64,000 nucleotides of DNA from an uncultured Actinomycetes bacterium (lineage in GTDB: Bacteria; Actinomycetota; UBA4738; HRBIN12). Below are positions 14-9,314 of this stretch, in pieces. The notes beneath the pieces are model-generated. The model was not told where the DNA came from. It saw nothing but the letters and a program-made list of their open reading frames with translations, and searched no databases. The stretch is taken from assembly GCA_963832225.1 (NCBI GenBank), contig CAWHTI010000013.1, positions 122,315 through 186,314 of the forward strand, given 5' to 3'. The first letter of the stretch is position 1. Each line of letters begins with the position of its first letter. Both the position numbers and the translations under genes were made by a program.

Positions 14-3000
14 GTGTTGCACTGGCTCGCCGAGGAGTCGGATCGCCTCGCGTGGGAGCTCGACGGCTCTGTCGTGCTCGTCGACATCTCCGGGTTCACG
101 AGAATGTCCGAACGGCTGTCGCGCAAGGGCAAGGTGGGAGCGGAGGAGATCACCGACGTTCTCGGCGCGGTGTTCAGTCGACTCCTTTCACTCGCGTATG
201 CCGAGGGCGGGGGGCTTCTGAAGTTCGGCGGAGATGCCCTCCTGCTCCTCTTTGCCGGCGACGAGCATCCACTTCGCGCGGTCAGGGCGGCGGCGGGGAT
301 GCGGCGTGAACTCCATCAGATCGGCGCGATCCACACGTCCGCCGGACTTGTGCGACTGAGGATGTCAGTGGGAGTCCATACCGATCGTTTCCAGTTCTTC
401 CTGGTCGGTGACTCGCACCGAGAGTTCGTGATCTCGGGACCCGGCGCCAGCGAGACGGTGCTGATGGAGGCCGTCGCGGGTGCCTCCGAGATCCTCATGA
501 GTCCGTCCACCTCGCGGTTCGTCCCGGATTCCTTGGTCGGAGCGTGGAAGGCCGTCGGGTTCCTGCTGCGCAAGGACCCCGGCGACGTCGCTGCTCATCC
601 GAAGGAGCGAGAGCTAGATCTGTCTGGAGTCGATGTGTCACAGGCAGTTCCGCTTGCCATACGGCGGTATCTCCAGACCGGCCTCGTCGAGCCAGAGCAC
701 CGGAAGGCTGCTATCGGCTTTCTGCACTACGACGGCATGGATCTTCTCGTCACGGAGGAAGGAGTCGGATCGGCAGCGATGGCGCTGCATGAACTGGTGT
801 GCGACGTCCAGGACGCGGCCGATCGCAACGGCGTGACATTCCTCGGGTCCGACGTGGATCACGATGGTGGGAAGATCATCCTCGCGGCCGGCGCGCCGGC
901 CGCGGCGGGCGACGATGAGGAGCGCATGCTCCTGACGCTCCGAGCGATCGTCGAACGGCCACGCAGGCTGCCAGTTCGTCTCGGGGTGAACCTCGGCCCG
1001 GTGTTCGCCGGCAATATCGGCCCCGAGTACCGGCGCACGTACACGATCATGGGTGACGCCGTGAACCTTGCCGCCCGACTGATGAGCAAGGCTGCTCCAG
1101 GTGAGGTCATCGCGACGAAGGGCGTCCTCGACGCGTCCGCCGCGCGTTTCCGGGTCGAAGCCCTGCCGCCATTTCTGGTGAAAGGAAAGGCAGCGCCCAT
1201 CGTTGCATATTCGGTCGGACCACTGCAGCGGGTGCGCCAGCGGAGGGACGGCACGGAGTTGCCGCTCGTCGGCCGCCAGAGCGAGCTCCGTGAGCTCGCC
1301 GATTCGTTGATGGCGCTCCGGGAGGGGCGGGGACGACTCCTGGAGATCGTGGGGGCTCCCGGGATCGGAAAGAGTCGACTGCTGAACGAACTCCGAAGTC
1401 GCTCAACGGGATTCAACAGGTTGGATGCGGCGTGCGAGCTCTACGGGGCCTCCGTGCCGTACCTCGCGTTTCGGGACGTGCTCCGTGCGGCAATCGGCCT
1501 CGCTGACGACGTCGACGACGCCACGACCTTGATGCGGTTGCAGACCGAGATCCGGTCGCGTACACCCAAGCTCGAGCCGTGGATGCCGCTGATCGCAGTG
1601 GCACTGGGGCTCGACGTCCCGCCGACGGACGAGGTCCGTCAACTCGACGATTCGTTCCGGAAGGATCAACTCGAGCGGGTGGTGGGGATCTTCCTCGCCG
1701 GAGTCGTGGAGGGTCCGACCCTGATTCTCATCGAGGACGTCCACTGGATGGACGAACTCTCGTGTGATCTGCTCACGCGTTTGGTGACCGAGCAGCTAGC
1801 AGACGCACCGTGGCTGATCTGCGTTACCCGTCGGGACGCCGCGACCGGCTTCTCCGCTCCATCGCACGACGTGGTGCTCGCGATCATGCTGCCTGCGCTC
1901 GATCCCGAGGATGCCCGGCTGCTCGTGGAATCGGCCACGGAAGACGCACCCCTCCTGCCGCGAGAGACCGAGGCGCTCGCGGAGCGGTCCGGCGGCAACC
2001 CATTGTTCCTGCAGGAGCTCGTTCGCGTCTCTCGGGAAGGAGGGATGGAGGCGCTGCCGGACTCCATCGATGCGGTGGTCACCGCTCAGATCGACCAGCT
2101 GGCGCCGGCCGACAGAGGGCTGCTTCGAACGGCCTCGGTCCTGGGCGCTGTCTTCAGCGAGACACTCCTGTGGAGTCTACTCGACACCGAGACTCGCCCA
2201 CGCAACGGCGCCGTGTGGGAACGCTTGGATTCGTTCGTGGTCCAGCATGACTCGGGGACGTGGCGATTTCGTCACGCGCTGATGAGGGATGCGGCCTACG
2301 AGGGCTTGCCGTACCGGCGCCGGCGCGACCTGCATGCACGTGCCGGCAAGCTGATCGAGGAGGCCGCTGGTAATGGCGCTGACGTGGCCGAGCTGCTGTC
2401 GTTGCACTACTTCAACGCCCAAGGATTTCCAGAGGCGTGGCGTTACTCCGTGATCGCCGGCCACCGAGCTCGCGATCGCTTCTCGAACGGTCGGGCGGCC
2501 GAGTTCTACGAGCGAGCGCTGAATGCTGCTTCCCACATCGGCTCCGTCGAGCTTCGTGAGATCGCGGCGATTCGCGAGGCGCTTGGCGATGTGCTCGTGC
2601 GGATGGGGGACTTCCGACGGGCACGCGGTGTCTACCGAGACGCCCGTGCCTCACTCGGCGACGAGGCCCTTGGGACCGCGAGAATCCTTGAGAAGCAAGC
2701 GAGGATCTCCGAGCGGTTGGGGCGTTACTCGGACGCGCTCCGTTGGCTGCAACGCGGTCTGAGCGCCTTGAACGGTTTGGACGGGATCGAAGTCCTCCGT
2801 CAGCGGGCTCAACTGTCAGTCTCCTACGCATCGATCCGGGTCGCGCAGGGCCGCGCCCGCGAGGCGAGGACCTGGTGCGCTGGGGCCATCGAAGAGGCCG
2901 ACGCCTCCGGGGAACGAGAGGCACTCGCACACGCGTACTACATCCTGGACTGGGCGCTCTTCCTCGAGGGCCGTGCAACCGGGTACGAGAACTCTTCGAA

Positions 3001-3853
3001 AGCGCTCGAGATCTACCGGGAGTTGAGCGACCCCGCAGGGCAAGCCGTCGTGCTGAACAACCTGGGTGGATTCAAGTACTTCGACGGCCAGTGGGACGAG
3101 GCGGTGGTCCTGTACAAGCGAGGCCGCGACGCCAGGGAGCGCACGGGCGACCCCGTGAACGCTGCGTACGGCACCTGCAACATCGGTGAGATCCTCTCGG
3201 ACCAGGGCCGGCTCGAGGAGGCTGAGCCGCTGTTGCGGGATGCCTCGCGCGTGTGGCGTGCGGCGGGCGACAGAGCCGGCGTGGCGTTCGCAGAGAGTCT
3301 GCTCGGGCGATTGGCGAGCCGCGCCGGACGCGCGGAGGAGGCGTTGGACCTGTTCGCTCGGGCCCGCGCCACGTTCGTCAAGGTGGGAAGCCAAACCGAC
3401 ACCATCGAGGTCGACGCGCGCGTCGCCGAATGCCTCGTGTTCCGAGGACTCGCCAACGAGGCGCTCGAGCGCGTCTCGACGACGCTGGTGGAGGCCGAGG
3501 CCTTCGAGGGAGTCAGCGTCCAGACGCCGCTGCTGCAACGGATTCGCGGATACTCGCTGATGCAGTTGGGGCGGTTGGATGATGCGGCCACGGCGTTCGA
3601 CGCCAGCCTGCTGGTGGCGCAGGCGCGCAAGGCGCGGTACGACGAGGCGCTGACCTTGCGGGCGGTCGAACAGCTCGCCCGCCTTCGAGGGTCGGGGCCG
3701 TCCTCGACTGGACGGCAGAGCGACCGAACACTCTCCGAACTCGGCGTCGTGGCTGTGCCCGACGTCCCTGACGTCGGCGCCATCGTGGATCCGGAGACGG
3801 CATCACTCACGGCCGTCAACGACGGCACAACGGAGATCGCCTCGCCAACGTGA
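14..3853 (+). CDS. Adenylate/guanylate cyclase (two class III cyclase domains) + AAA/STAND ATPase + TPR repeats; 5' end probably just outside the window
   Basis: Domain 1 has VDISGFT and KFGGDA; domain 2 has TIMGDAVNLAARL and VKGK; LVGRQSEL, Walker A GAPGIGKSRL, IEDVHWMD, SGGNPLFL, TPR-like C-terminus. The frame is open back to the window edge. Confidence 0.9.
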   Translation: MLHWLAEESDRLAWELDGSVVLVDISGFTRMSERLSRKGKVGAEEITDVLGAVFSRLLSLAYAEGGGLLKFGGDALLLLFAGDEHPLRAVRAAAGMRRELHQIGAIHTSAGLVRLRMSVGVHTDRFQFFLVGDSHREFVISGPGASETVLMEAVAGASEILMSPSTSRFVPDSLVGAWKAVGFLLRKDPGDVAAHPKERELDLSGVDVSQAVPLAIRRYLQTGLVEPEHRKAAIGFLHYDGMDLLVTEEGVGSAAMALHELVCDVQDAADRNGVTFLGSDVDHDGGKIILAAGAPAAAGDDEERMLLTLRAIVERPRRLPVRLGVNLGPVFAGNIGPEYRRTYTIMGDAVNLAARLMSKAAPGEVIATKGVLDASAARFRVEALPPFLVKGKAAPIVAYSVGPLQRVRQRRDGTELPLVGRQSELRELADSLMALREGRGRLLEIVGAPGIGKSRLLNELRSRSTGFNRLDAACELYGASVPYLAFRDVLRAAIGLADDVDDATTLMRLQTEIRSRTPKLEPWMPLIAVALGLDVPPTDEVRQLDDSFRKDQLERVVGIFLAGVVEGPTLILIEDVHWMDELSCDLLTRLVTEQLADAPWLICVTRRDAATGFSAPSHDVVLAIMLPALDPEDARLLVESATEDAPLLPRETEALAERSGGNPLFLQELVRVSREGGMEALPDSIDAVVTAQIDQLAPADRGLLRTASVLGAVFSETLLWSLLDTETRPRNGAVWERLDSFVVQHDSGTWRFRHALMRDAAYEGLPYRRRRDLHARAGKLIEEAAGNGADVAELLSLHYFNAQGFPEAWRYSVIAGHRARDRFSNGRAAEFYERALNAASHIGSVELREIAAIREALGDVLVRMGDFRRARGVYRDARASLGDEALGTARILEKQARISERLGRYSDALRWLQRGLSALNGLDGIEVLRQRAQLSVSYASIRVAQGRAREARTWCAGAIEEADASGEREALAHAYYILDWALFLEGRATGYENSSKALEIYRELSDPAGQAVVLNNLGGFKYFDGQWDEAVVLYKRGRDARERTGDPVNAAYGTCNIGEILSDQGRLEEAEPLLRDASRVWRAAGDRAGVAFAESLLGRLASRAGRAEEALDLFARARATFVKVGSQTDTIEVDARVAECLVFRGLANEALERVSTTLVEAEAFEGVSVQTPLLQRIRGYSLMQLGRLDDAATAFDASLLVAQARKARYDEALTLRAVEQLARLRGSGPSSTGRQSDRTLSELGVVAVPDVPDVGAIVDPETASLTAVNDGTTEIASPT

Positions 3854-3863
3854 GGCGGCGGCG

Positions 3864-4730
3864 CTACGCCCCGCCCGACTTCGTACCCATCCTGGGGTCG
3901 GTATCGGACGTCCGAACCAGGACGGCCAGATCACCATCGTCGCGAGTTGTCTTGGCCACGCAGGGTATCGACGACGAGGTGCAGCTCGAGAGCTGAACCG
4001 GGTTTTCCCCCTTCGTCGCGTCGTACCACACGACGAAACCGGTCACCCCTCCTGCGGCGCGATCAGGGGCGGCCTCGACCACTGTCTCGTCGTACATCAG
4101 TTTGACCGTGTAGAAGGGTCCACCCAAACTCCCGTTCTCAAGTGCGTTCACGAGCACCTGGTTCGCGAGGCACGATCCGTTGCAGAACCCGTTGTCGGGC
4201 TCTTCCTTCAGCGTACCGACGCCCGTTGTGCCTGCGGGGAACGTCTGCTTCCCGACGAACGGATCGGTCGGCGTCGCTCCGTTCCCTGTGCTCATCGACA
4301 GGTTGCCGCCGCCGATCAGCTCGGCATCCTGCCCCCTGTTCGGGGTCGCCGAAACCTCATTCGACGGTGAGCTCTCACCGCATACGTTGACGGCGGTCAC
4401 GGTGAACGCATACGACTGACCGTTGTTGAGCTTGTTCAACTGTGTCTGTGTCTGGGTGGTCCGTCGCGTCCGCACGCCGTCCACATACACCCGGTAGAAG
4501 TCGACGCCCCCTCCGTTGAAGGCGGGCGGGTCCCAGAACAACACGACGTTCCGATTCCCGGCCGCAACCGTCAGGTCTTGCGGCGGGCCAGGAGCCGAGA
4601 AGGGTCCGCCCTCCCCCATCGGCAGCGATCGCTCACCGCCACCACAGCCGCCCGCAGCGGCCATCGGCGCACCGGGGGCGAAGATCGACATCAGCAACGA
4701 CAGCGGAACGAGCAGCGCAATCCGTCTCAT
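3864..4730 (-). CDS. Secreted fibronectin type III domain protein
   Basis: GGAGGT RBS before ATG 4730; signal-peptide-like MRRIALLVPLSLLMSIFAPGAPMAAA; FN3 pattern PGPPQDL...WDPP...Y.V...LNNGQSYAFTVTAVN..GES. Confidence 0.8.
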   Translation of the reverse strand: MRRIALLVPLSLLMSIFAPGAPMAAAGGCGGGERSLPMGEGGPFSAPGPPQDLTVAAGNRNVVLFWDPPAFNGGGVDFYRVYVDGVRTRRTTQTQTQLNKLNNGQSYAFTVTAVNVCGESSPSNEVSATPNRGQDAELIGGGNLSMSTGNGATPTDPFVGKQTFPAGTTGVGTLKEEPDNGFCNGSCLANQVLVNALENGSLGGPFYTVKLMYDETVVEAAPDRAAGGVTGFVVWYDATKGENPVQLSSCTSSSIPCVAKTTRDDGDLAVLVRTSDTDPRMGTKSGGA

Positions 4731-5055
4731 CAGCCACCTCCCACGTTGGCCCAGGCTCCCCGCGCTCGCCCACCCCGTCGAGCGAACCTGCTGTACATCG
4801 TCCTCGCGGCCTCGATGCCCGAAGCTCATCTCTCCCTCCCAGCTGGGGTCGGCTGAGCCAATGACGTCCGATGACACTCACACGGGTGGGATGGAGGGGT
4901 CATCAACCGTTTGCGGTAATCATCTCGCCTATACACGGGAGAGCAACCCCCTGGCTCGGGGTGCTTCGAAGCACTCAGACCTCTCGCCCCGCGCCGGGCA
5001 AACAAGACTTCCCCGCTGTTGTCGATCACCTCTTGGTTGTTCGTTCGCGGGGCGG

Positions 5056-5107
5056 GCAAGACGAGAACGCCCCCCGCAACGCTGAGCAGGGGGCGTTCAA
5101 CGTCTGC
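5056..5107 (-). terminator. Long GC-rich hairpin downstream of the 19-aa Cys peptide ORF
   Basis: Minus strand GAACGCCCCCTGC-8 nt loop-GCGGGGGGCGTTC (13 bp, one G-U pair that works only on the minus strand), extendable by AGACG/CGTCT; weak U tract. Confidence 0.6.
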
Positions 5108-5121
5108 TCGAACCGGCGGAA

Positions 5122-5181
5122 TCAGCAGCAACCCGGTGGGCAGCAGTCGGGCGGGCAGCTCGGATCGTTGTCTACGATCAT
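5122..5181 (-). CDS. 19-aa Cys-rich peptide MIVDNDPSCPPDCCPPGCC (not in ORF track)
   Basis: GAGAGGAGGGGAC directly before ATG; upstream TTGACA-17 nt-CAACGT; TGA at 5122-5124; followed by a hairpin; divergent from arsR. Confidence 0.7.
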   Translation of the reverse strand: MIVDNDPSCPPDCCPPGCC

Positions 5182-5194
5182 GTCCCCTCCTCTC

Positions 5195-5248
5195 ATTGAT
5201 GGACGTCGATACGTTGCCAGATGTATAGATAGGTGTCAATATGAGGAT
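5195..5248. promoter_or_regulatory. Overlapping divergent promoters with two candidate ArsR operators
   Basis: ATTGATGGACGTCGAT (5195-5210) and ATAGATAGGTGTCAAT (5225-5240) share AT(T/A)GA-N6-TC(G/A)AT; plus strand TTGCCA-17-CAATAT lies 6 nt before the arsR GTG (leaderless); minus strand TTGACA-17-CAACGT. Confidence 0.65.
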
Positions 5249-5584
5249 GTGAAGCAGATCGCCGTGATCGACCAGGCATGTTGCCCCCAGGTGCTCGGCT
5301 CGCCGCTGTCCGCGGCTGAGGCCGAGGACCTGGCGGGGGCGCTCAGGGTCGTGGCTGACCCCGCTCGTCTGCGGCTCCTCTCGCTGATCGCCGCAACCGA
5401 GGGGTCAGAGGCGTGCGTGTGTGACCTCACCGAGCCGCTGGGCCTGTCGCAACCGACGGTCAGCCACCATCTCAAGGTGCTCACCGACGCTGGTCTCCTC
5501 GCTCGCGAACAGCGTGGCCGATGGGCATTCTTCAGCATCGAAGCCGAACCACTTGCCCTTCTGCGGAAGGCCCTATCCCCATGA
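5249..5584 (+). CDS. arsR: ArsR/SmtB family arsenic-responsive repressor
   Basis: N-terminal ACCP, ADPARLRLLSLI, EACVCDL, LSQPTVSHHLKVL; ATGA overlap with arsC. Confidence 0.9.
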   Translation: MKQIAVIDQACCPQVLGSPLSAAEAEDLAGALRVVADPARLRLLSLIAATEGSEACVCDLTEPLGLSQPTVSHHLKVLTDAGLLAREQRGRWAFFSIEAEPLALLRKALSP

Positions 5585-5994
5585 CCGCAGAACTCCCCGA
5601 GGTCCTGTTCGTCTGCGTTCACAATGCGGGGCGCTCCCAGATGGCTGCCGCGCTACTCAACCATCACGCCGGGGGGCAAGTGGCCATCCGCTCTGCCGGG
5701 AGCACACCAGCCGACGAGATCAATCCCTCCGTCGTCGCGGCGATGGACGAACTCGGGATCGACCTGTCGAAGGAGTTCCCGAAGCCACTCACGACCGTCG
5801 CGGTCGAGGCCGCTGACGTTGTTGTCACGATGGGTTGCGGTGACGCTTGTCCGATCTTCCCGGGCACGAGGTACCTCGACTGGGAGTTGCCGGACCCCGC
5901 AGGCAAGTCCCTCGAAGAGGTTCGCTCGATCCGCGACGAGATCGAGCGACGTGTGCACGTTCTCCTCGACGACCTCGTGAGCCGAGCGCGGTAG
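5581..5994 (+). CDS. arsC: Arsenate reductase, LMW-PTPase fold (actinobacterial type)
   Basis: VLFVCVHNAGRSQMA, VVTMGCGDACPIFPG, DWELPDPAG, IRDEI. Confidence 0.93.
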   Translation: MTAELPEVLFVCVHNAGRSQMAAALLNHHAGGQVAIRSAGSTPADEINPSVVAAMDELGIDLSKEFPKPLTTVAVEAADVVVTMGCGDACPIFPGTRYLDWELPDPAGKSLEEVRSIRDEIERRVHVLLDDLVSRAR

Positions 5995-6149: not shown

Positions 6150-7058
6150 ATGTTCGAGTCGCGGTTGAGCCATGCATATCTGATCGGTGCTGCCATGTGC
6201 TGGGGACTCGGTACGGTCCTCAGCAAGTACGCGCTCGGGGGCATCGACGCCTCTCTGCTCCTTCCGTTCCAGTTGGCGTGCAGCGTCCTGATGTTGGGTG
6301 CATTCCTGCTCATGACTCGTTCCTCGCTGCGCGGTATCCGCCGTGCCGCGCAGATCGCCGCGTTGGGGGTGCTCAACCCTGGGATCGCGTACGCGCTCGG
6401 GTTGATCGCGCTCGCGCACATCAACGCATCCGTGTCGGTGATCATCTGGGCGACGGAGCCGGTCGTGATCGTTGTCCTGGCCTTCGCGATCCTTCACGAA
6501 CGGCTCCCCCTCTGGAGTATCGCCTGCCTCGCCGCTGCTATGGCGGGAGTCGCCCTGATCGTCGGCACTCCTTCAACGGGCAACTCCACCTTCGGCGTCG
6601 TCCTGACGTTTGCCTCGGTCTTCGCCTGTGCCCTCTACGCTGTGCTGCTACGTCGGATGGATCTGACGGACGGCACGCTTCCGGTCGTCTTCTTGCAACA
6701 AGCGAGTGCGCTCGCCTTTGCCGTGCTGGTGTTGTTCGCCGTCTCGGTGCAGTCCTTACACTCGATCGACGCGACGGCATCTCAACTGATCAGCGCGATC
6801 CTCTCCGGAGGCCTCTACTACGGCGTGGCCTTCCTCCTGTTCGTCTCTGGTCTGCGACGGACCTCCGCTGCTCGAGCGGGAATGTTCCTGACCCTGATAC
6901 CGGTGTTCGGCTTGTTCTTCAGTGCGTTGCTGTTGGGGGAGACGATGGACGCTGGACAGCTCATGGGGTCGACGGTTGTGGTCGGCTCGATGTCGGTTCT
7001 TGCCCTGCGACAGGCGAACGATCCTCGGAAGCGCAGGCGGGCCCGACTTGCTCAGTAG
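6150..7058 (+). CDS. EamA/DMT family transporter
   Basis: About 10 hydrophobic segments in two repeats; WGLGTV, ATEP, LIPVFG..LLLGE motifs. Confidence 0.88.
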   Translation: MFESRLSHAYLIGAAMCWGLGTVLSKYALGGIDASLLLPFQLACSVLMLGAFLLMTRSSLRGIRRAAQIAALGVLNPGIAYALGLIALAHINASVSVIIWATEPVVIVVLAFAILHERLPLWSIACLAAAMAGVALIVGTPSTGNSTFGVVLTFASVFACALYAVLLRRMDLTDGTLPVVFLQQASALAFAVLVLFAVSVQSLHSIDATASQLISAILSGGLYYGVAFLLFVSGLRRTSAARAGMFLTLIPVFGLFFSALLLGETMDAGQLMGSTVVVGSMSVLALRQANDPRKRRRARLAQ

Positions 7059-7309: not shown

Positions 7310-8173
7310 TTACCGCTCGAACGACGAGCTTCGTCTGCCGGCAACGGTGAGCGCGTCGACTCGCTCGACGAACGAACCGGCCGGTCTCGGCTGGGCTGCG
7401 ATCGCGGCGCGGATCGCCGTCCATACATCGGACCTTCGGTCGACGCTCTGTTCCGTGAGCATGTTGTTGATCGTCACGCTCGTGTCACGTAGATAGTCGA
7501 CGTACTCATCAGACGAGGCGAACGGCGTCGCGAGCTCGATGATCTCGCTCCGAACGTCGACGAAGCCTGCATCAACCAGCGTCGCCTCCAGCCCACTCCG
7601 GTCGTCCGGCGCGAACCTCATCCGAACCGGCTCGTTCTCGGGAAGGCCTAGGTGGCGCCGCGTGACGGCGACCGCGGTCGAGAAGAACGGCGATCGCGGG
7701 TAGAGCGATGCGGCGAGTCGCCCGCCGCTCACGAGCGCGCGCCGGACCCGGCGCAGCGCCTCGTCGACGTCGGGAAGGAACATCAGCCCGAACCTGCTCA
7801 GCACGACGTCGAAGTGATCTTCGTAGTCGAGCTGCTCCGCGTCAGTCTCGAGGAACTCGACGTTCCGCAGCCTTCGCTCGGCGGCGCGCTCTCGCGCGAT
7901 CGCCAGCATCCCCGGTGAGATGTCGGTTGCGACGACGCGTCCTTCCGAGCCGACTGCGGCTGCCGCCGTCAGCGCCGGCTCGCCGATCCCGGTCGCGATG
8001 TCGAGCACGCATGCGCCCGGCTTCACCTCGGCGAGCTCGAGCAGCCGCTCCGTCACGACATCCGCCTCGAGCTTGTCCCACCAGCGACGCCAGCCGATCG
8101 CGGCGTCGCTCCATCCGCGGCGCTGGGCGGTCTTGAACGCGTCACGATCGAAAGGGCGACCCACGGCCGTCAC
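7310..8173 (-). CDS. Class I SAM-dependent methyltransferase (UbiE-like)
   Basis: VLDIATGIGEP, TDISPGML, DAEQL, FDVVLSRFGLMF; start codon uncertain. Confidence 0.85.
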   Translation of the reverse strand: MTAVGRPFDRDAFKTAQRRGWSDAAIGWRRWWDKLEADVVTERLLELAEVKPGACVLDIATGIGEPALTAAAAVGSEGRVVATDISPGMLAIARERAAERRLRNVEFLETDAEQLDYEDHFDVVLSRFGLMFLPDVDEALRRVRRALVSGGRLAASLYPRSPFFSTAVAVTRRHLGLPENEPVRMRFAPDDRSGLEATLVDAGFVDVRSEIIELATPFASSDEYVDYLRDTSVTINNMLTEQSVDRRSDVWTAIRAAIAAQPRPAGSFVERVDALTVAGRRSSSFER

Positions 8174-8345
8174 TTTATGCCTCCAGCTCAAGGAGCTCCG
8201 GGTAACGGCGGGTCGGAGATCCTCCCGATCTACCGCATCATCGCGCCCGAGGTTGCGCACTGCCAAGTTCAGTGGATCCACGGGGATTCCATACAACCAC
8301 CGTGACGTGGTCACCGACGACCTGCGGCGATGTCTGGTCCAGAAG

Positions 8346-8416
8346 TTCCGGGGGGAGGAGTCGAACCTCCATCGTAGGCTCCAAAGGCCCGCGTCTTGCC
8401 GTTAGACCACCCCGGA
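8346..8416 (-). tRNA. tRNA-Gln(TTG), CCA not encoded
   Basis: TCCGGGG/CCCCGGA acceptor stem, D loop TAACGGCAA, anticodon loop CT-TTG-GA, T arm GGAGG-TTCGACT-CCTCC. Confidence 0.93.
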
Positions 8417-8432
8417 TCGAACGTCGTTCATC

Positions 8433-9314
8433 CTAGGTCGGCGTCGTCGGCGTGGCCCGCCATCCCGACGCCGCGATCGCGCCCGGTTGGGTCGCGGCGA
8501 GCTCCTCCGCGTGCGCCCGGTCCCGGGCCAGCGCCACCACCGTTGGACCGCTGCCGCTCATCACCGCGCCGAGGGCGCCGGCGGCGAGCAGGGCGTCGCG
8601 GACCGCCGCGATCTCCGGATGCCGCGCGCAGACGGGCGCCTCCAGATCGTTCGTCAGCCCCGCGCCGAGGGCCTCCATGTCGCCGCGGGCCGCCGCCCGG
8701 AGCAGGGCCGCGCCCTCGGGTCCGGTGACCGACCCGTCCTCGTCCCACCATCGGAACGCGTCGGGAGATCGGGTCGGGAACTCGAACGGTCGCACGACCC
8801 ACCACGTGGGCGCGACCTCCACGCGCTGCACGTCCTCGCCTCGGCCGCGCATCAGCACCGGCCCGCCGGCCACGAGCGCGGGCACGTCGGATCCCACCCG
8901 CTCGGCGACCTGGATCAGCGCCTCCGGGCCCAGCCCGCAGCCCCACAGCTCGTCGAGGGCCAGCAGGACCGCAGCCGCGTCCGCGCTGCCGCCACCGAGG
9001 CCGGCCGCCACCGGGATGCGCTTCGTGATCCGGATCCGGGCGCCGCGCGTCACGGCCGCCGTCTCCGCCAGCGCCAGCGCGGCCATCAGGCCCAGGTTCA
9101 TGCCGGCGCCCGACCGGGCCGCGGCGGCCAGGCGCGGGTCGCCGTGGACCTCGACGTCGAGCCGGTCCGTCTCCTCGACCTCGACCGTGTCCGCCAGCGA
9201 GAGCGGCAGCACCAGGCTCTCGAGTTCGTGGTAGCCGTCCTCCCGGAGACCCAGCACCCGCAGGAAGACGTTCACCTTCGCGTGCGCCTCGCGGCGGACC
9301 GGCCGGGACGTCAT
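8433..9314 (-). CDS. ispE: 4-diphosphocytidyl-2-C-methyl-D-erythritol kinase
   Basis: AHAKVNVFLRV...DGYHEL, KRIPVAAGLGGGSADAA, GSDVP, MSGSGPT. Confidence 0.95.
   Translation of the reverse strand: MTSRPVRREAHAKVNVFLRVLGLREDGYHELESLVLPLSLADTVEVEETDRLDVEVHGDPRLAAAARSGAGMNLGLMAALALAETAAVTRGARIRITKRIPVAAGLGGGSADAAAVLLALDELWGCGLGPEALIQVAERVGSDVPALVAGGPVLMRGRGEDVQRVEVAPTWWVVRPFEFPTRSPDAFRWWDEDGSVTGPEGAALLRAAARGDMEALGAGLTNDLEAPVCARHPEIAAVRDALLAAGALGAVMSGSGPTVVALARDRAHAEELAATQPGAIAASGWRATPTTPT

Follow-up and report, generated by a model that had tools for sequence, protein, structure and literature searches.

What is made from a promoter that faces away from an arsR gene when the only evident product in front of it is a peptide of 19 residues, five of them cysteine? 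The question is raised by a 64,000-nucleotide stretch of DNA from an uncultured Actinomycetes bacterium (GenBank assembly GCA_963832225.1, contig CAWHTI010000013.1, positions 122,315 to 186,314; hereafter the window), in which a minus-strand micro open reading frame (micro-ORF) lies divergent from arsR. A preliminary description of the window, made from the sequence, had proposed that this micro-ORF encodes an ArsR-induced arsenite chelator or chaperone. Comparison with related loci indicates that the micro-ORF is a real, conserved and unannotated gene, which appears to encode a peptide of about 16 residues, about one third of them cysteine, beside arsR in many uncultured soil actinobacteria. 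Its product is most likely a repressor-controlled, arsenite- or soft-metal-binding mini-metallothionein. The features of the locus, in window coordinates, are as follows.

5122 to 5181, minus strand: the micro-ORF including its stop, encoding MIVDNDPSCPPDCCPPGCC (19 amino acids (aa), 5 Cys), a member of the (CCPxx)2CC micro-peptide family.
5186 to 5194, minus strand: Shine-Dalgarno site GAGAGGAGG, with its GGAGG core 4 nt before the micro-ORF ATG.
5211 to 5239, minus strand: putative micro-ORF promoter as read from the sequence, TTGACA at 5239-5234, a 17-nt spacer and TG-n-CAACGT at 5219-5211.
5223 to 5242: dyad 1 (8-4-8), ATATTGAC-ACCT-ATCTATAC, overlapping the micro-ORF -35 and the putative arsR -10.
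5193 to 5212: dyad 2 (8-4-8), GTATCGAC-GTCC-ATCAATGA, its centre 30 bp from that of dyad 1.
5065 to 5098, minus strand: GC-rich stem-loop of 13 bp that starts 23 nt past the micro-ORF stop, terminator-like and without a T-run.
5249 to 5584, plus strand: arsR, which starts with GTG and encodes a 111-aa repressor of the ArsR/SmtB family (88.6 bits on NF033788, whose cut-off is 55; 59 bits on PF01022).

The five-cysteine ORF and the strong ribosome-binding site of the preliminary description are both there: the ORF runs from an ATG at 5181-5179 to a TGA at 5124-5122, and GAGAGGAGG at 5194-5186 brings GGAGG to within 4 nt of the ATG. An alternative in-frame ATG upstream, at 5196, would give a 24-aa form. 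The arsR start lies 67 bp from the micro-ORF. Within the putative micro-ORF promoter, the second hexamer (CAACGT, 5216-5211) has a TG one base ahead of it; the candidate arsR promoter consists of TTGCCA (5214-5219), a 17-nt spacer and CAATAT (5237-5242), and with CAATAT ending 6 nt before the GTG the arsR mRNA is probably leaderless. Two similar 16-bp dyads had also been noted; two related dyads are present, and are better described as 8-4-8. Dyad 2 covers the predicted transcription start and 5' untranslated region of the micro-ORF. The hairpin, earlier placed about 25 nt past the stop, was found at 23 nt, and the 72-nt stretch around it folds with a free energy of -41.1 kcal/mol (z -5.09; 0 of 200 shuffles folded as well). 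An Rfam search at the locus returned nothing better than E 0.22.

The peptide is new to the collections that were searched. The 24-aa form matched 0 families in Pfam (E <= 1) and NCBIfam (E <= 10), metallothionein models included, and PDB sequences gave 0 matches to the micro-peptide at E <= 10. A collection of 15 billion proteins contains neither of two 24-aa forms; standard gene callers miss the micro-ORF. The strings CCPPGCC, CCPPDCC and CCPEDCC were not found in about 8.4 million papers and preprints, where all 196 matches were to CCPGCC (supplementary files lay outside this search), and topical literature searches found no description of such a Cys-rich, arsR-linked peptide. In the preliminary description it was not recognized as a described ars gene, and neither a domain model nor a paper on it was found here.

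Conservation was examined outward from the arsR gene. With window positions 5040-5600 as DNA query, 20 of 41 related genomes gave a match. The match begins at query base 83, the last base of the micro-ORF stop, in four of these (G008, G031, G023 and G021), and at query base 70 in another (G028). Thirteen non-self loci had an arsR match of at least 219 nt, and a six-frame scan, as the preliminary description had suggested beside arsR genes, found an intact Cys-rich micro-ORF at the equivalent place in 11 of them. In one of the other two (L009, genome G001) the micro-ORF is frameshifted by a one-base deletion relative to its sister locus L010, about 35 nt before the stop, which puts the N-terminal part out of frame with the CCPPGCC end; this copy is either a pseudogene or an assembly error. 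The remaining locus (L011, from the unpublished genome G037) has an arsR ortholog and no micro-ORF. L010, which encodes an eight-cysteine peptide, comes from the unpublished genome G002 and is included in the family, intergenic, hairpin and composition counts given below.

Homologous peptides include MNDPCCPADCCPPDCC, VSDPCCPEDCCPSGCC (GTG start) and MTMFVDPCCPEESCPPGCC. Thirteen of them align to the consensus M-x-x-x-D-P-C-C-P-x-D-C-C-P-P-G-C-C, and the family as a whole follows M-x(1-5)-DPCCPxDCCPPGCC-stop in ORFs of 15-24 codons. At E <= 0.1, a profile built from the 13 peptides found a match in 45 of the 201 genomes sampled from the window's order (15 of the 45, with E 0.005-0.06, are counted on profile score alone; one is the unpublished genome G061, whose peptide also occurs in locus L104). 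The matches within the order included 28 of 105 high-quality genomes and 20 of 75 genera. Across a phylum-wide sample, the profile matched 12 of 401 genomes at E <= 0.01, and all 12 belong to the window's order. The window's own 3.5-Mb genome has a single profile match (E <= 10), at the micro-ORF locus. One genome, G042, carries two copies of the micro-ORF on separate contigs (C6:3908-3961 and C5:1362737-1362790).

A search that does not involve arsR led to the same family. A degenerate DNA pattern for CC-P-x3-C-P-x-[GDE]-CC-stop, applied to one genome per prokaryotic species, found 82 stretches, of which 80 were examined. Thirty-nine are short ORFs with a Shine-Dalgarno sequence and a start codon, and 2 further evident homologs had been missed by the Shine-Dalgarno expression; 24 end in TGG instead of a stop (mostly CCPYG-type repeats in Streptomyces and similar genomes), and 15 are unrelated matches with a true stop codon. 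All 41 family members found in this way come from metagenome-assembled genome (MAG) records, 40 labelled Actinomycetota, Actinomycetes or Actinobacteria and 1 Terriglobia. Of the 41 members, 34 have a divergent arsR ortholog beside them; of the 39 non-family matches, 0 do, a control contrast that the pattern itself does not impose. The same pattern found at least 120 stretches in metagenome contigs, at least 83 of them family-like with at least 53 distinct peptides, and at least 75 of the at least 83 have a divergent arsR within 400 nt. The other 37 listed metagenome stretches include several evident members that the Shine-Dalgarno expression missed.

Such patterns also find shadows. A (CCPPD)n-CC-stop frame (L219:8166-8204, and likewise L223) was rejected as a family member: it runs antisense to a (GGQQS)n repeat within a 486-aa ORF (7648-9108) with a GC content of 0.43, an artefact that warns against pattern scans for Cys/Pro repeats. 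Tandem CCPYG, CCPNG or CCPYD frames that run through TGG occur in L066, L071, L076, L078, L079, L084, L091, L100, L102, L114 and L132, from Streptomyces, Actinomadura, Curtobacterium, Nocardia and similar genomes, and, like the L219 frame, may lie antisense to Gly/Gln-rich repeat proteins.

The genome loci were pooled into 46 instances with 39 distinct peptides, MAGs throughout. The distinct peptides measure 15-24 aa (median 16) and consist of 32% Cys, 24% Pro and 11% Asp; a stop follows the terminal CC directly in 37 of 39. F, W, Y or H is present in only 6 of 39. The peptides have the small size, very high cysteine content and scarcity of aromatic residues of a metallothionein in the operational sense. 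Net charge is -1 to -4 in all peptides but one. Counted over the 46 instances, there are six cysteines in 27 and five in 17, starts are ATG (35) or GTG (11), stops are TGA (28) or TAG (18), and 43 have GGAGG at 4-12 nt ahead of the start codon (mode 8). Several loci have a stop-to-stop frame of just 18-22 codons. Codon conservation was assessed on 42 of the 46 instances, namely distinct nucleotide sequences with standard spacing. The cysteine codons, whose loss in homologous loci would have spoken against a thiol peptide, are kept across the family: C4, C9, C13 and C14 are invariant, C3 is found in 40 of 42 sequences and C8 in 27 of 42. Entropy at codon positions 1, 2 and 3 is 0.34, 0.35 and 1.11, and codons outside the positions fixed by the pattern behave alike (D, 0.32/0.32/1.44; P, 0.37/0.44/1.91; central D, 0/0.59/1.22). 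Stalling at PPG or PPD of the kind relieved by elongation factor P was considered as a conserved feature and dropped, the proline after each CP being present in only 21 of 42 and 29 of 42 sequences.

The tie to arsR extends to the DNA between the genes. A divergent arsR ortholog lies within 400 nt of the micro-ORF in 40 of 47 instances, at an intergenic distance of 66-126 bp, and these 40 regions have one architecture: cATATTGAC-N4-gTCGATAc, about 5 nt, GTCAAC overlapping GTATCGAC-N4-aTCGATAc, a variable spacer, GGAGGTG and the start codon. The family consensus is therefore ATATTGAC-N4-gTCGATAc for dyad 1 and GTATCGAC-N4-aTCGATAc for dyad 2, at a distance of about 30 bp. TTGACA and TGTCAA, its inverted copy, point towards each other, and TTGACA plus TGTCAAC(G/A)T is conserved in the intergenic regions of relatives; each TTGACA box can be the -35 element of one gene while lying within the -10 region of the other. 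The dyads are kept before the micro-ORF in 5 of 6 loci without an adjacent arsR (in one of those with dyads, L077, an arsR ortholog lies 2.4 kb away), which points to the micro-gene as a regulated target. We infer that the dyads are ArsR binding sites. When the operator pattern was scanned against the window's genome, it gave 2-mismatch sites only, 18 versus 3 for a control pattern, and since the window dyads are themselves 2-mismatch sites no regulon can be derived from the scan. Two loci depart in detail. L012, with an intergenic region of 126 bp, has a 15-nt unit (GCCAGAGCGGTTGGC-like) three times in direct repeat between dyad 2 and the Shine-Dalgarno sequence; L095 has no dyads, and about 100 nt upstream has a further short frame ending ...GCC-TGA, possibly a second tandem micro-ORF.

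The repressors are uniform as well. The arsR orthologs align from the same first residues, and four cysteines, C11-C12 (as CCP) and C56-x-C58, are present in 38-39 of 40; the window copy has all four (C11, C12, C56 and C58). A CVC motif is the site of the classical As(III)-sensing ArsR, and an N-terminal Cys pair is found in corynebacterial ArsR and in the Cd/Pb/Zn sensor CadC. The cysteine set suggests that the effector is thiophilic.

On the far side of the micro-ORF, a structure is conserved and its sequence is not. For 45 of the 46 instances (L060 has too little downstream sequence and was left out), the 60 nt past the stop have a mean folding energy of -35.9 kcal/mol, and random windows drawn from these loci one of -20.4; 38 of 45 are matched by no more than 5% of the control windows, and an uninterrupted stem of at least 8 bp is present in 39 of 45. 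The genes past the hairpin vary: glmM (in one genus-level group), fusions of a helix-turn-helix (HTH) domain with a low-molecular-weight (LMW) phosphatase, DUF6855, an MFS transporter, a methyltransferase and, in the window, a fibronectin-III (FN3) protein. By a crude ORF call based on third-position GC content, which mis-assigns some loci, 12 of the 26 loci that could be scored have a convergent next ORF and 14 have one on the strand of the micro-ORF. Convergence was confirmed for an Eis-like acetyltransferase gene 52 nt past the micro-ORF stop in L090, a DinB/MDMPI gene in L108 and YdjM in L202. In the glmM group (L110, L133, L063, L062, L042, L107, L099, L096 and L075) the cassette sits just 5' of glmM, within the housekeeping region rpoA-rplQ-truA-rplM-rpsI-glmM-glmS, and glmM starts about 70 nt past the micro-ORF stop behind a conserved TAGCAT-like element.

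The pairing with an ArsR-type regulator is also found in a second arrangement, in which the regulator gene precedes the micro-ORF on the same strand (L070, L171, L202 and L195). L070 is the MAG labelled Terriglobia; L171 and L202 are metagenome contigs of lower GC content (0.61-0.64). In these three, an ArsR-family gene (PF01022; NF033788 83.9 bits in L171) is followed after 25-45 nt by GAAAGGAGG, then by M(D/N/C)PCCPGPCCPD(G/D)CC and a stem-loop with a T-run; in L195, MNDDVKDDGCCSSGCCPPGCCPPGCC and a DinB-family gene come after the ArsR-family gene. That these two partners recur in differing gene orders speaks for a functional link of regulator and peptide.

The wider neighbourhood of the window copy contains the following genes.

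5581 to 5994, plus strand: arsC candidate, an LMW-phosphatase-type arsenate reductase (PF01451, 82 bits), its start overlapping the arsR stop.
6150 to 7058, plus strand: EamA-family transporter, directly 3' of arsC.
7310 to 8314, minus strand: methyltransferase dependent on S-adenosylmethionine, convergent to the arsR-arsC-EamA unit.
3864 to 4877, same strand as the micro-ORF: FN3 domain protein, the next ORF past the hairpin.
14 to 3853, plus strand: ORF of 1279 aa at the left end of the examined region.

The methyltransferase weakly resembles an arsenite methyltransferase (NF008823, 71.5 bits versus a cut-off of 263). EamA is absent from the 25 most frequent neighbour families at other loci, and the window copy could be a lineage-specific exporter.

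Elsewhere in the family, neighbours were surveyed over 147 of 159 candidate ORFs within 3.5 kb of the micro-ORF, at 35 of the 37 loci of at least 5 kb (the near-duplicates L062 and L099 were dropped); the 25 most frequent of 92 Pfam families were considered. The commonest are LMWPc (14 ORFs), the family of arsC-type reductases, and the ArsR-type HTH (11), followed by the housekeeping genes that host the inserted cassette (L13, S9, L17, rpoA, truA, glmM and glmS). None of the 25 is a metal-efflux ATPase, CDF or mer family, or a conserved enzyme for maturation of ribosomally synthesized and post-translationally modified peptides. A tblastn search found arsC within the fetched locus for 31 of 47 instances, placed after arsR in 8, convergent to arsR in 9, downstream of the micro-ORF in 8 and elsewhere in 6. 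An arsenite methyltransferase gene (arsM) above the curated cut-off of 263 bits adjoins the micro-ORF in L012 (294 bits) and in L173 (304 bits), where the micro-ORF lies between it and a PIG-L-type deacetylase gene; arsM is rare overall, at 3 of 147 neighbour ORFs. Of the claim of an ArsR-induced arsenite chelator, then, what stands is a genuine small gene beside arsR in arsenic contexts, often with arsC and sometimes with arsM, for which regulatory coupling is probable. That arsenite would be the ligand, rather than Cd, Zn, Cu or Hg, is suggested by the neighbour genes and by cysteine chemistry.

Arsenite pumps are rare in the order, with ACR3 in 11 and ArsB in 20 of 201 genomes (one of the ArsB matches being the unpublished genome G196). 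A replacement of pumps by the peptide was considered and discarded, since ACR3- or ArsB-family pumps occur in 7 of 45 micro-ORF carriers versus 22 of 156 others, which is no contrast (the cross-tabulation assumes the same 201 genomes in each sample). The window's genome, which is 73% complete, yielded no ACR3, ArsB or ArsD; the ArsA_ATPase family is uninformative, as it matches 14 of 14 control genomes.

We consider it rather probable that the two divergent genes form a pair, with a repressor of the ArsR/SmtB family in control of a tiny gene whose product is a thiol peptide that binds As(III) or soft metals. Effector-free ArsR, with its CC near the N-terminus and CVC in helix 3, would sit on both dyads, cover the face-to-face promoters and so repress itself and the micro-gene. 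Binding of a thiophilic effector to the repressor cysteines would open both promoters; arsenite or antimonite is the most likely effector because of the arsC and arsM neighbours. The micro-gene would then give a short monocistronic mRNA ending at the hairpin and efficiently translated from its strong Shine-Dalgarno sequence. The predicted product is an acidic (CCPxx)2CC chain of 15-24 residues with 5-6 thiols as vicinal pairs spaced by proline turns. At three thiolates per arsenic, C4, C9, C13 and C14 together with C3 and C8 could form one or two As(III) sites per peptide. The role proposed for the peptide is that of a genetically encoded mini-metallothionein or carrier, which would buffer free metalloid, exert feedback on ArsR and perhaps hand As(III) over to ArsM or an unknown exporter.

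Several observations weigh against this account. In the window itself, an E. coli-type sigma-70 promoter scan of 4850-5350 found 0 sites: the TTGACA-17-CAACGT promoter of the preliminary description is present in its hexamers and spacing, and it fails the scan because its weak -10 hexamer, CAACGT, agrees with TATAAT at only 2 of 6 positions; its function for the micro-ORF is presumptive. A scan of the same interval for the T-run terminator consensus also found 0 sites, the T-run being absent from the hairpin; the promoter and terminator signals of the window were thus read by eye and from conservation. The window dyads are degenerate where those of relatives are sharp, and the window peptide lacks the first cysteine of its first pair. 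Window positions 4900-5700 occur in no listed RNA run, and the best DNA runs share at most 0.30 of the words. The codon periodicity is partly imposed by the search pattern and is common to a wobble-aligned antisense frame, hence it cannot alone tell the sense frame from such an antisense. As to arsenic, the window arsC scores under the cut-off for both TIGR02689 (81 bits) and TIGR02691 (70 bits); arsC is absent from 16 of 47 loci as fetched; L011 has arsC directly divergent from arsR in place of the micro-ORF; the four-Cys set of the repressor resembles the CadC type, so the effector need not be arsenic; and with ACR3 or ArsB in only 7 of 45 carriers the fate of bound arsenite is unexplained.

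Four other explanations were weighed. That the micro-ORF is not a gene, and arose by chance or as the antisense shadow of an N-terminally extended ArsR or of another plus-strand ORF, is very improbable. Shadows do occur, as L219 illustrates, and in the window the arsR frame is open upstream across the micro-ORF antisense, back to an ATG at 4871. Over 40 loci, however, the sense wobble position falls on arsR-frame codon position 1, 3 or 2 in 19, 14 and 7, with no constant relation, and a stop breaks the arsR frame before it crosses the micro-ORF in 15 of 40; these two results rule out an extended ArsR. The shared first residues of the arsR orthologs agree with this, and the start, Shine-Dalgarno sequence and stop of the sense ORF are conserved. 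It is quite unlikely, for its part, that the micro-ORF is a regulatory leader and senses the supply of cysteine or thiols: a ribosome held up on the last Cys codons would mask the 5' arm of the hairpin and allow transcription or translation to continue into the downstream genes, and the peptide itself would have no function. The final two codons are nearly always Cys, the hairpin begins within a few bases of the micro-ORF stop, 8 of 47 loci have arsC downstream and on the same strand (as L012 has arsM), and polycysteine short ORFs are described as cysteine-responsive attenuators in mycobacteria (10.1101/834739). Yet the ORFs of this family are not leaderless, with GGAGG upstream in 43 of 46, and residues other than Cys are conserved too (D, P, P after each CC, D/E, G/D). 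The downstream genes are moreover mutually unrelated (glmM, FN3 protein, DUF6855, MFS, arsC fusions) and often convergent, as in L090, L108 and L202, and in such loci a leader peptide would have nothing to regulate; in the second clade a T-run terminator closes the arsR-micro-ORF unit. The constant partner is arsR and not any downstream gene.

The other two explanations accept the peptide and differ over what it does. It is unlikely that the peptide handles thiols or arsenite without sequestering it, either by serving ArsC or ArsM as a dedicated dithiol partner in redox reactions or as a source of As(III), in place of conjugates of the glutathione type, or by tuning ArsR. The CCP[PE]D of the peptide is similar to the CCP that the ArsR orthologs have, nearly without exception, at residues 11-13, arsC and arsM are among the neighbours, genes of thiol-metabolism type (DinB/MST-like in L195 and L108, a PIG-L deacetylase in L173) lie nearby, and ACR3 and ArsB are missing from most carriers. 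There is, on the other side, no constant enzyme partner, given how many loci lack arsC and how few have arsM. Somewhat less likely again is a soft-metal metallothionein unrelated to arsenic, with a repressor that senses Cd, Zn, Pb, Cu or Hg and LMW phosphatases that are incidental. Sensors of the Cd/Pb/Zn kind, CadC among them, typically have a four-Cys site that combines an N-terminal arm with CVC; in Mer proteins Hg(II) is handled by vicinal CC pairs; and in layout the locus is like the smtB-smtA divergon, which responds to zinc and has two inverted repeats, as that system is presented in PMC8790569. Against it stand LMWPc as the top neighbour family, the two loci in which arsM above the curated cut-off adjoins the micro-ORF, and the lack of metal-efflux ATPase, CDF and mer families among the 25 most frequent neighbours.

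The reading of a repressor-controlled thiol peptide can be extended, more tentatively and with the balance tilted against it, to a hitherto unrecognized core part of arsenic resistance: a ribosomally made, ArsR-induced arsenite carrier, (CCPxx)2CC, as the counterpart in nature of the tetracysteine tag, which would replace glutathione or phytochelatin conjugates in thiol-poor, pump-poor soil actinobacteria. Such a carrier would hold the As(III) made by ArsC, pass it to ArsM or an unknown exporter and set the response threshold of ArsR. If true, the pairing with ArsR in two gene orders, one of them in a Terriglobia-labelled MAG, would mean a module assembled or transferred more than once. A question is also raised as to how an order with few ACR3 or ArsB genes copes with the arsenite made by its ArsC. 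For gene finding, the locus demonstrates that a regulator can be used as an anchor in the search for micro-genes, and for biosensing and bioremediation the peptide offers a natural 16-residue tag that may bind arsenic or soft metals.

The closest parallel in layout is smtB-smtA of Synechococcus PCC 7942. SmtA is a protein of about 56 aa that holds a Zn4 cluster via Cys and His. In smt, as here, an ArsR/SmtB repressor gene is divergent from a small Cys-rich gene, at a distance of 100 bp (about 70-130 bp here), and the shared operator-promoter region carries one or two inverted repeats, according to the description in PMC8790569. SmtB differs in that it senses zinc at an alpha-5 site, whereas the repressor here carries the four-Cys CC...CVC set; the peptides of 15-24 aa are unrelated in sequence to smtA and lie in an arsC/arsM context.

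In ligand spacing the peptides recall ArsD of R773, for which PMC4562236 gives Cys12-Cys13-Cys18 as As(III) ligands, along with the C-terminal pairs Cys112-113 and Cys119-120. The CC-x4-C spacing of residues 12, 13 and 18 equals that of C3, C4 and C9 in the peptide consensus, and 37 of 39 peptides likewise end in CC. ArsD (PF06953), however, is folded, measures about 120 aa and has ArsA as its partner, and the 19-aa peptide has no ArsD domain. The engineered tag CCPGCC binds the biarsenicals FlAsH and ReAsH, as it is generally described, with one arsenic per vicinal Cys pair. It shares with the peptides two vicinal Cys pairs parted by a proline turn; the tag is a synthetic CC-x2-CC, while the natural motif is CC-P-x-x-CC (x3), usually doubled, and exact CCPGCC was not found among the micro-peptides listed from genomes and metagenome contigs. 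Phytochelatins and engineered arsenic-binding peptides or metallothioneins are also short and thiol-rich, and form complexes with As(III) or Cd(II), as outlined in PMC8041291. Phytochelatins are made enzymatically with gamma-Glu-Cys bonds; the peptide here would be ribosomal and is placed beside a metalloregulator.

The mycobacterial polycysteine ORFs, which are leaderless, head cysteine-metabolism operons and act by ribosome pausing in the account of 10.1101/834739, resemble the present family in being unannotated, very short and Cys-rich and in occurring in Actinomycetota. The family differs in its strong Shine-Dalgarno sequence, its own hairpin, its variable or convergent downstream genes and its arsR partner. 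AntC, encoded in Comamonas testosteroni's ant operon, is characterized in PMC12641948 as an antimonite metallochaperone used for sequestration or delivery. As is proposed for the peptide, here likened to it by description only, it is an accessory protein that binds a metalloid and is encoded alongside a metalloid regulator; unlike the peptide, it works with the P-type ATPase AntA. A 2025 paper states, in its treatment of ars operons, that no gene for intracellular sequestration was found within them (PMC12093948). If the peptide binds arsenite, it would fill this gap with one of the smallest metal-handling genes known. Set beside these systems, the regulatory logic of the locus is already known; new are the peptide family, its extreme smallness and its arsenic context.

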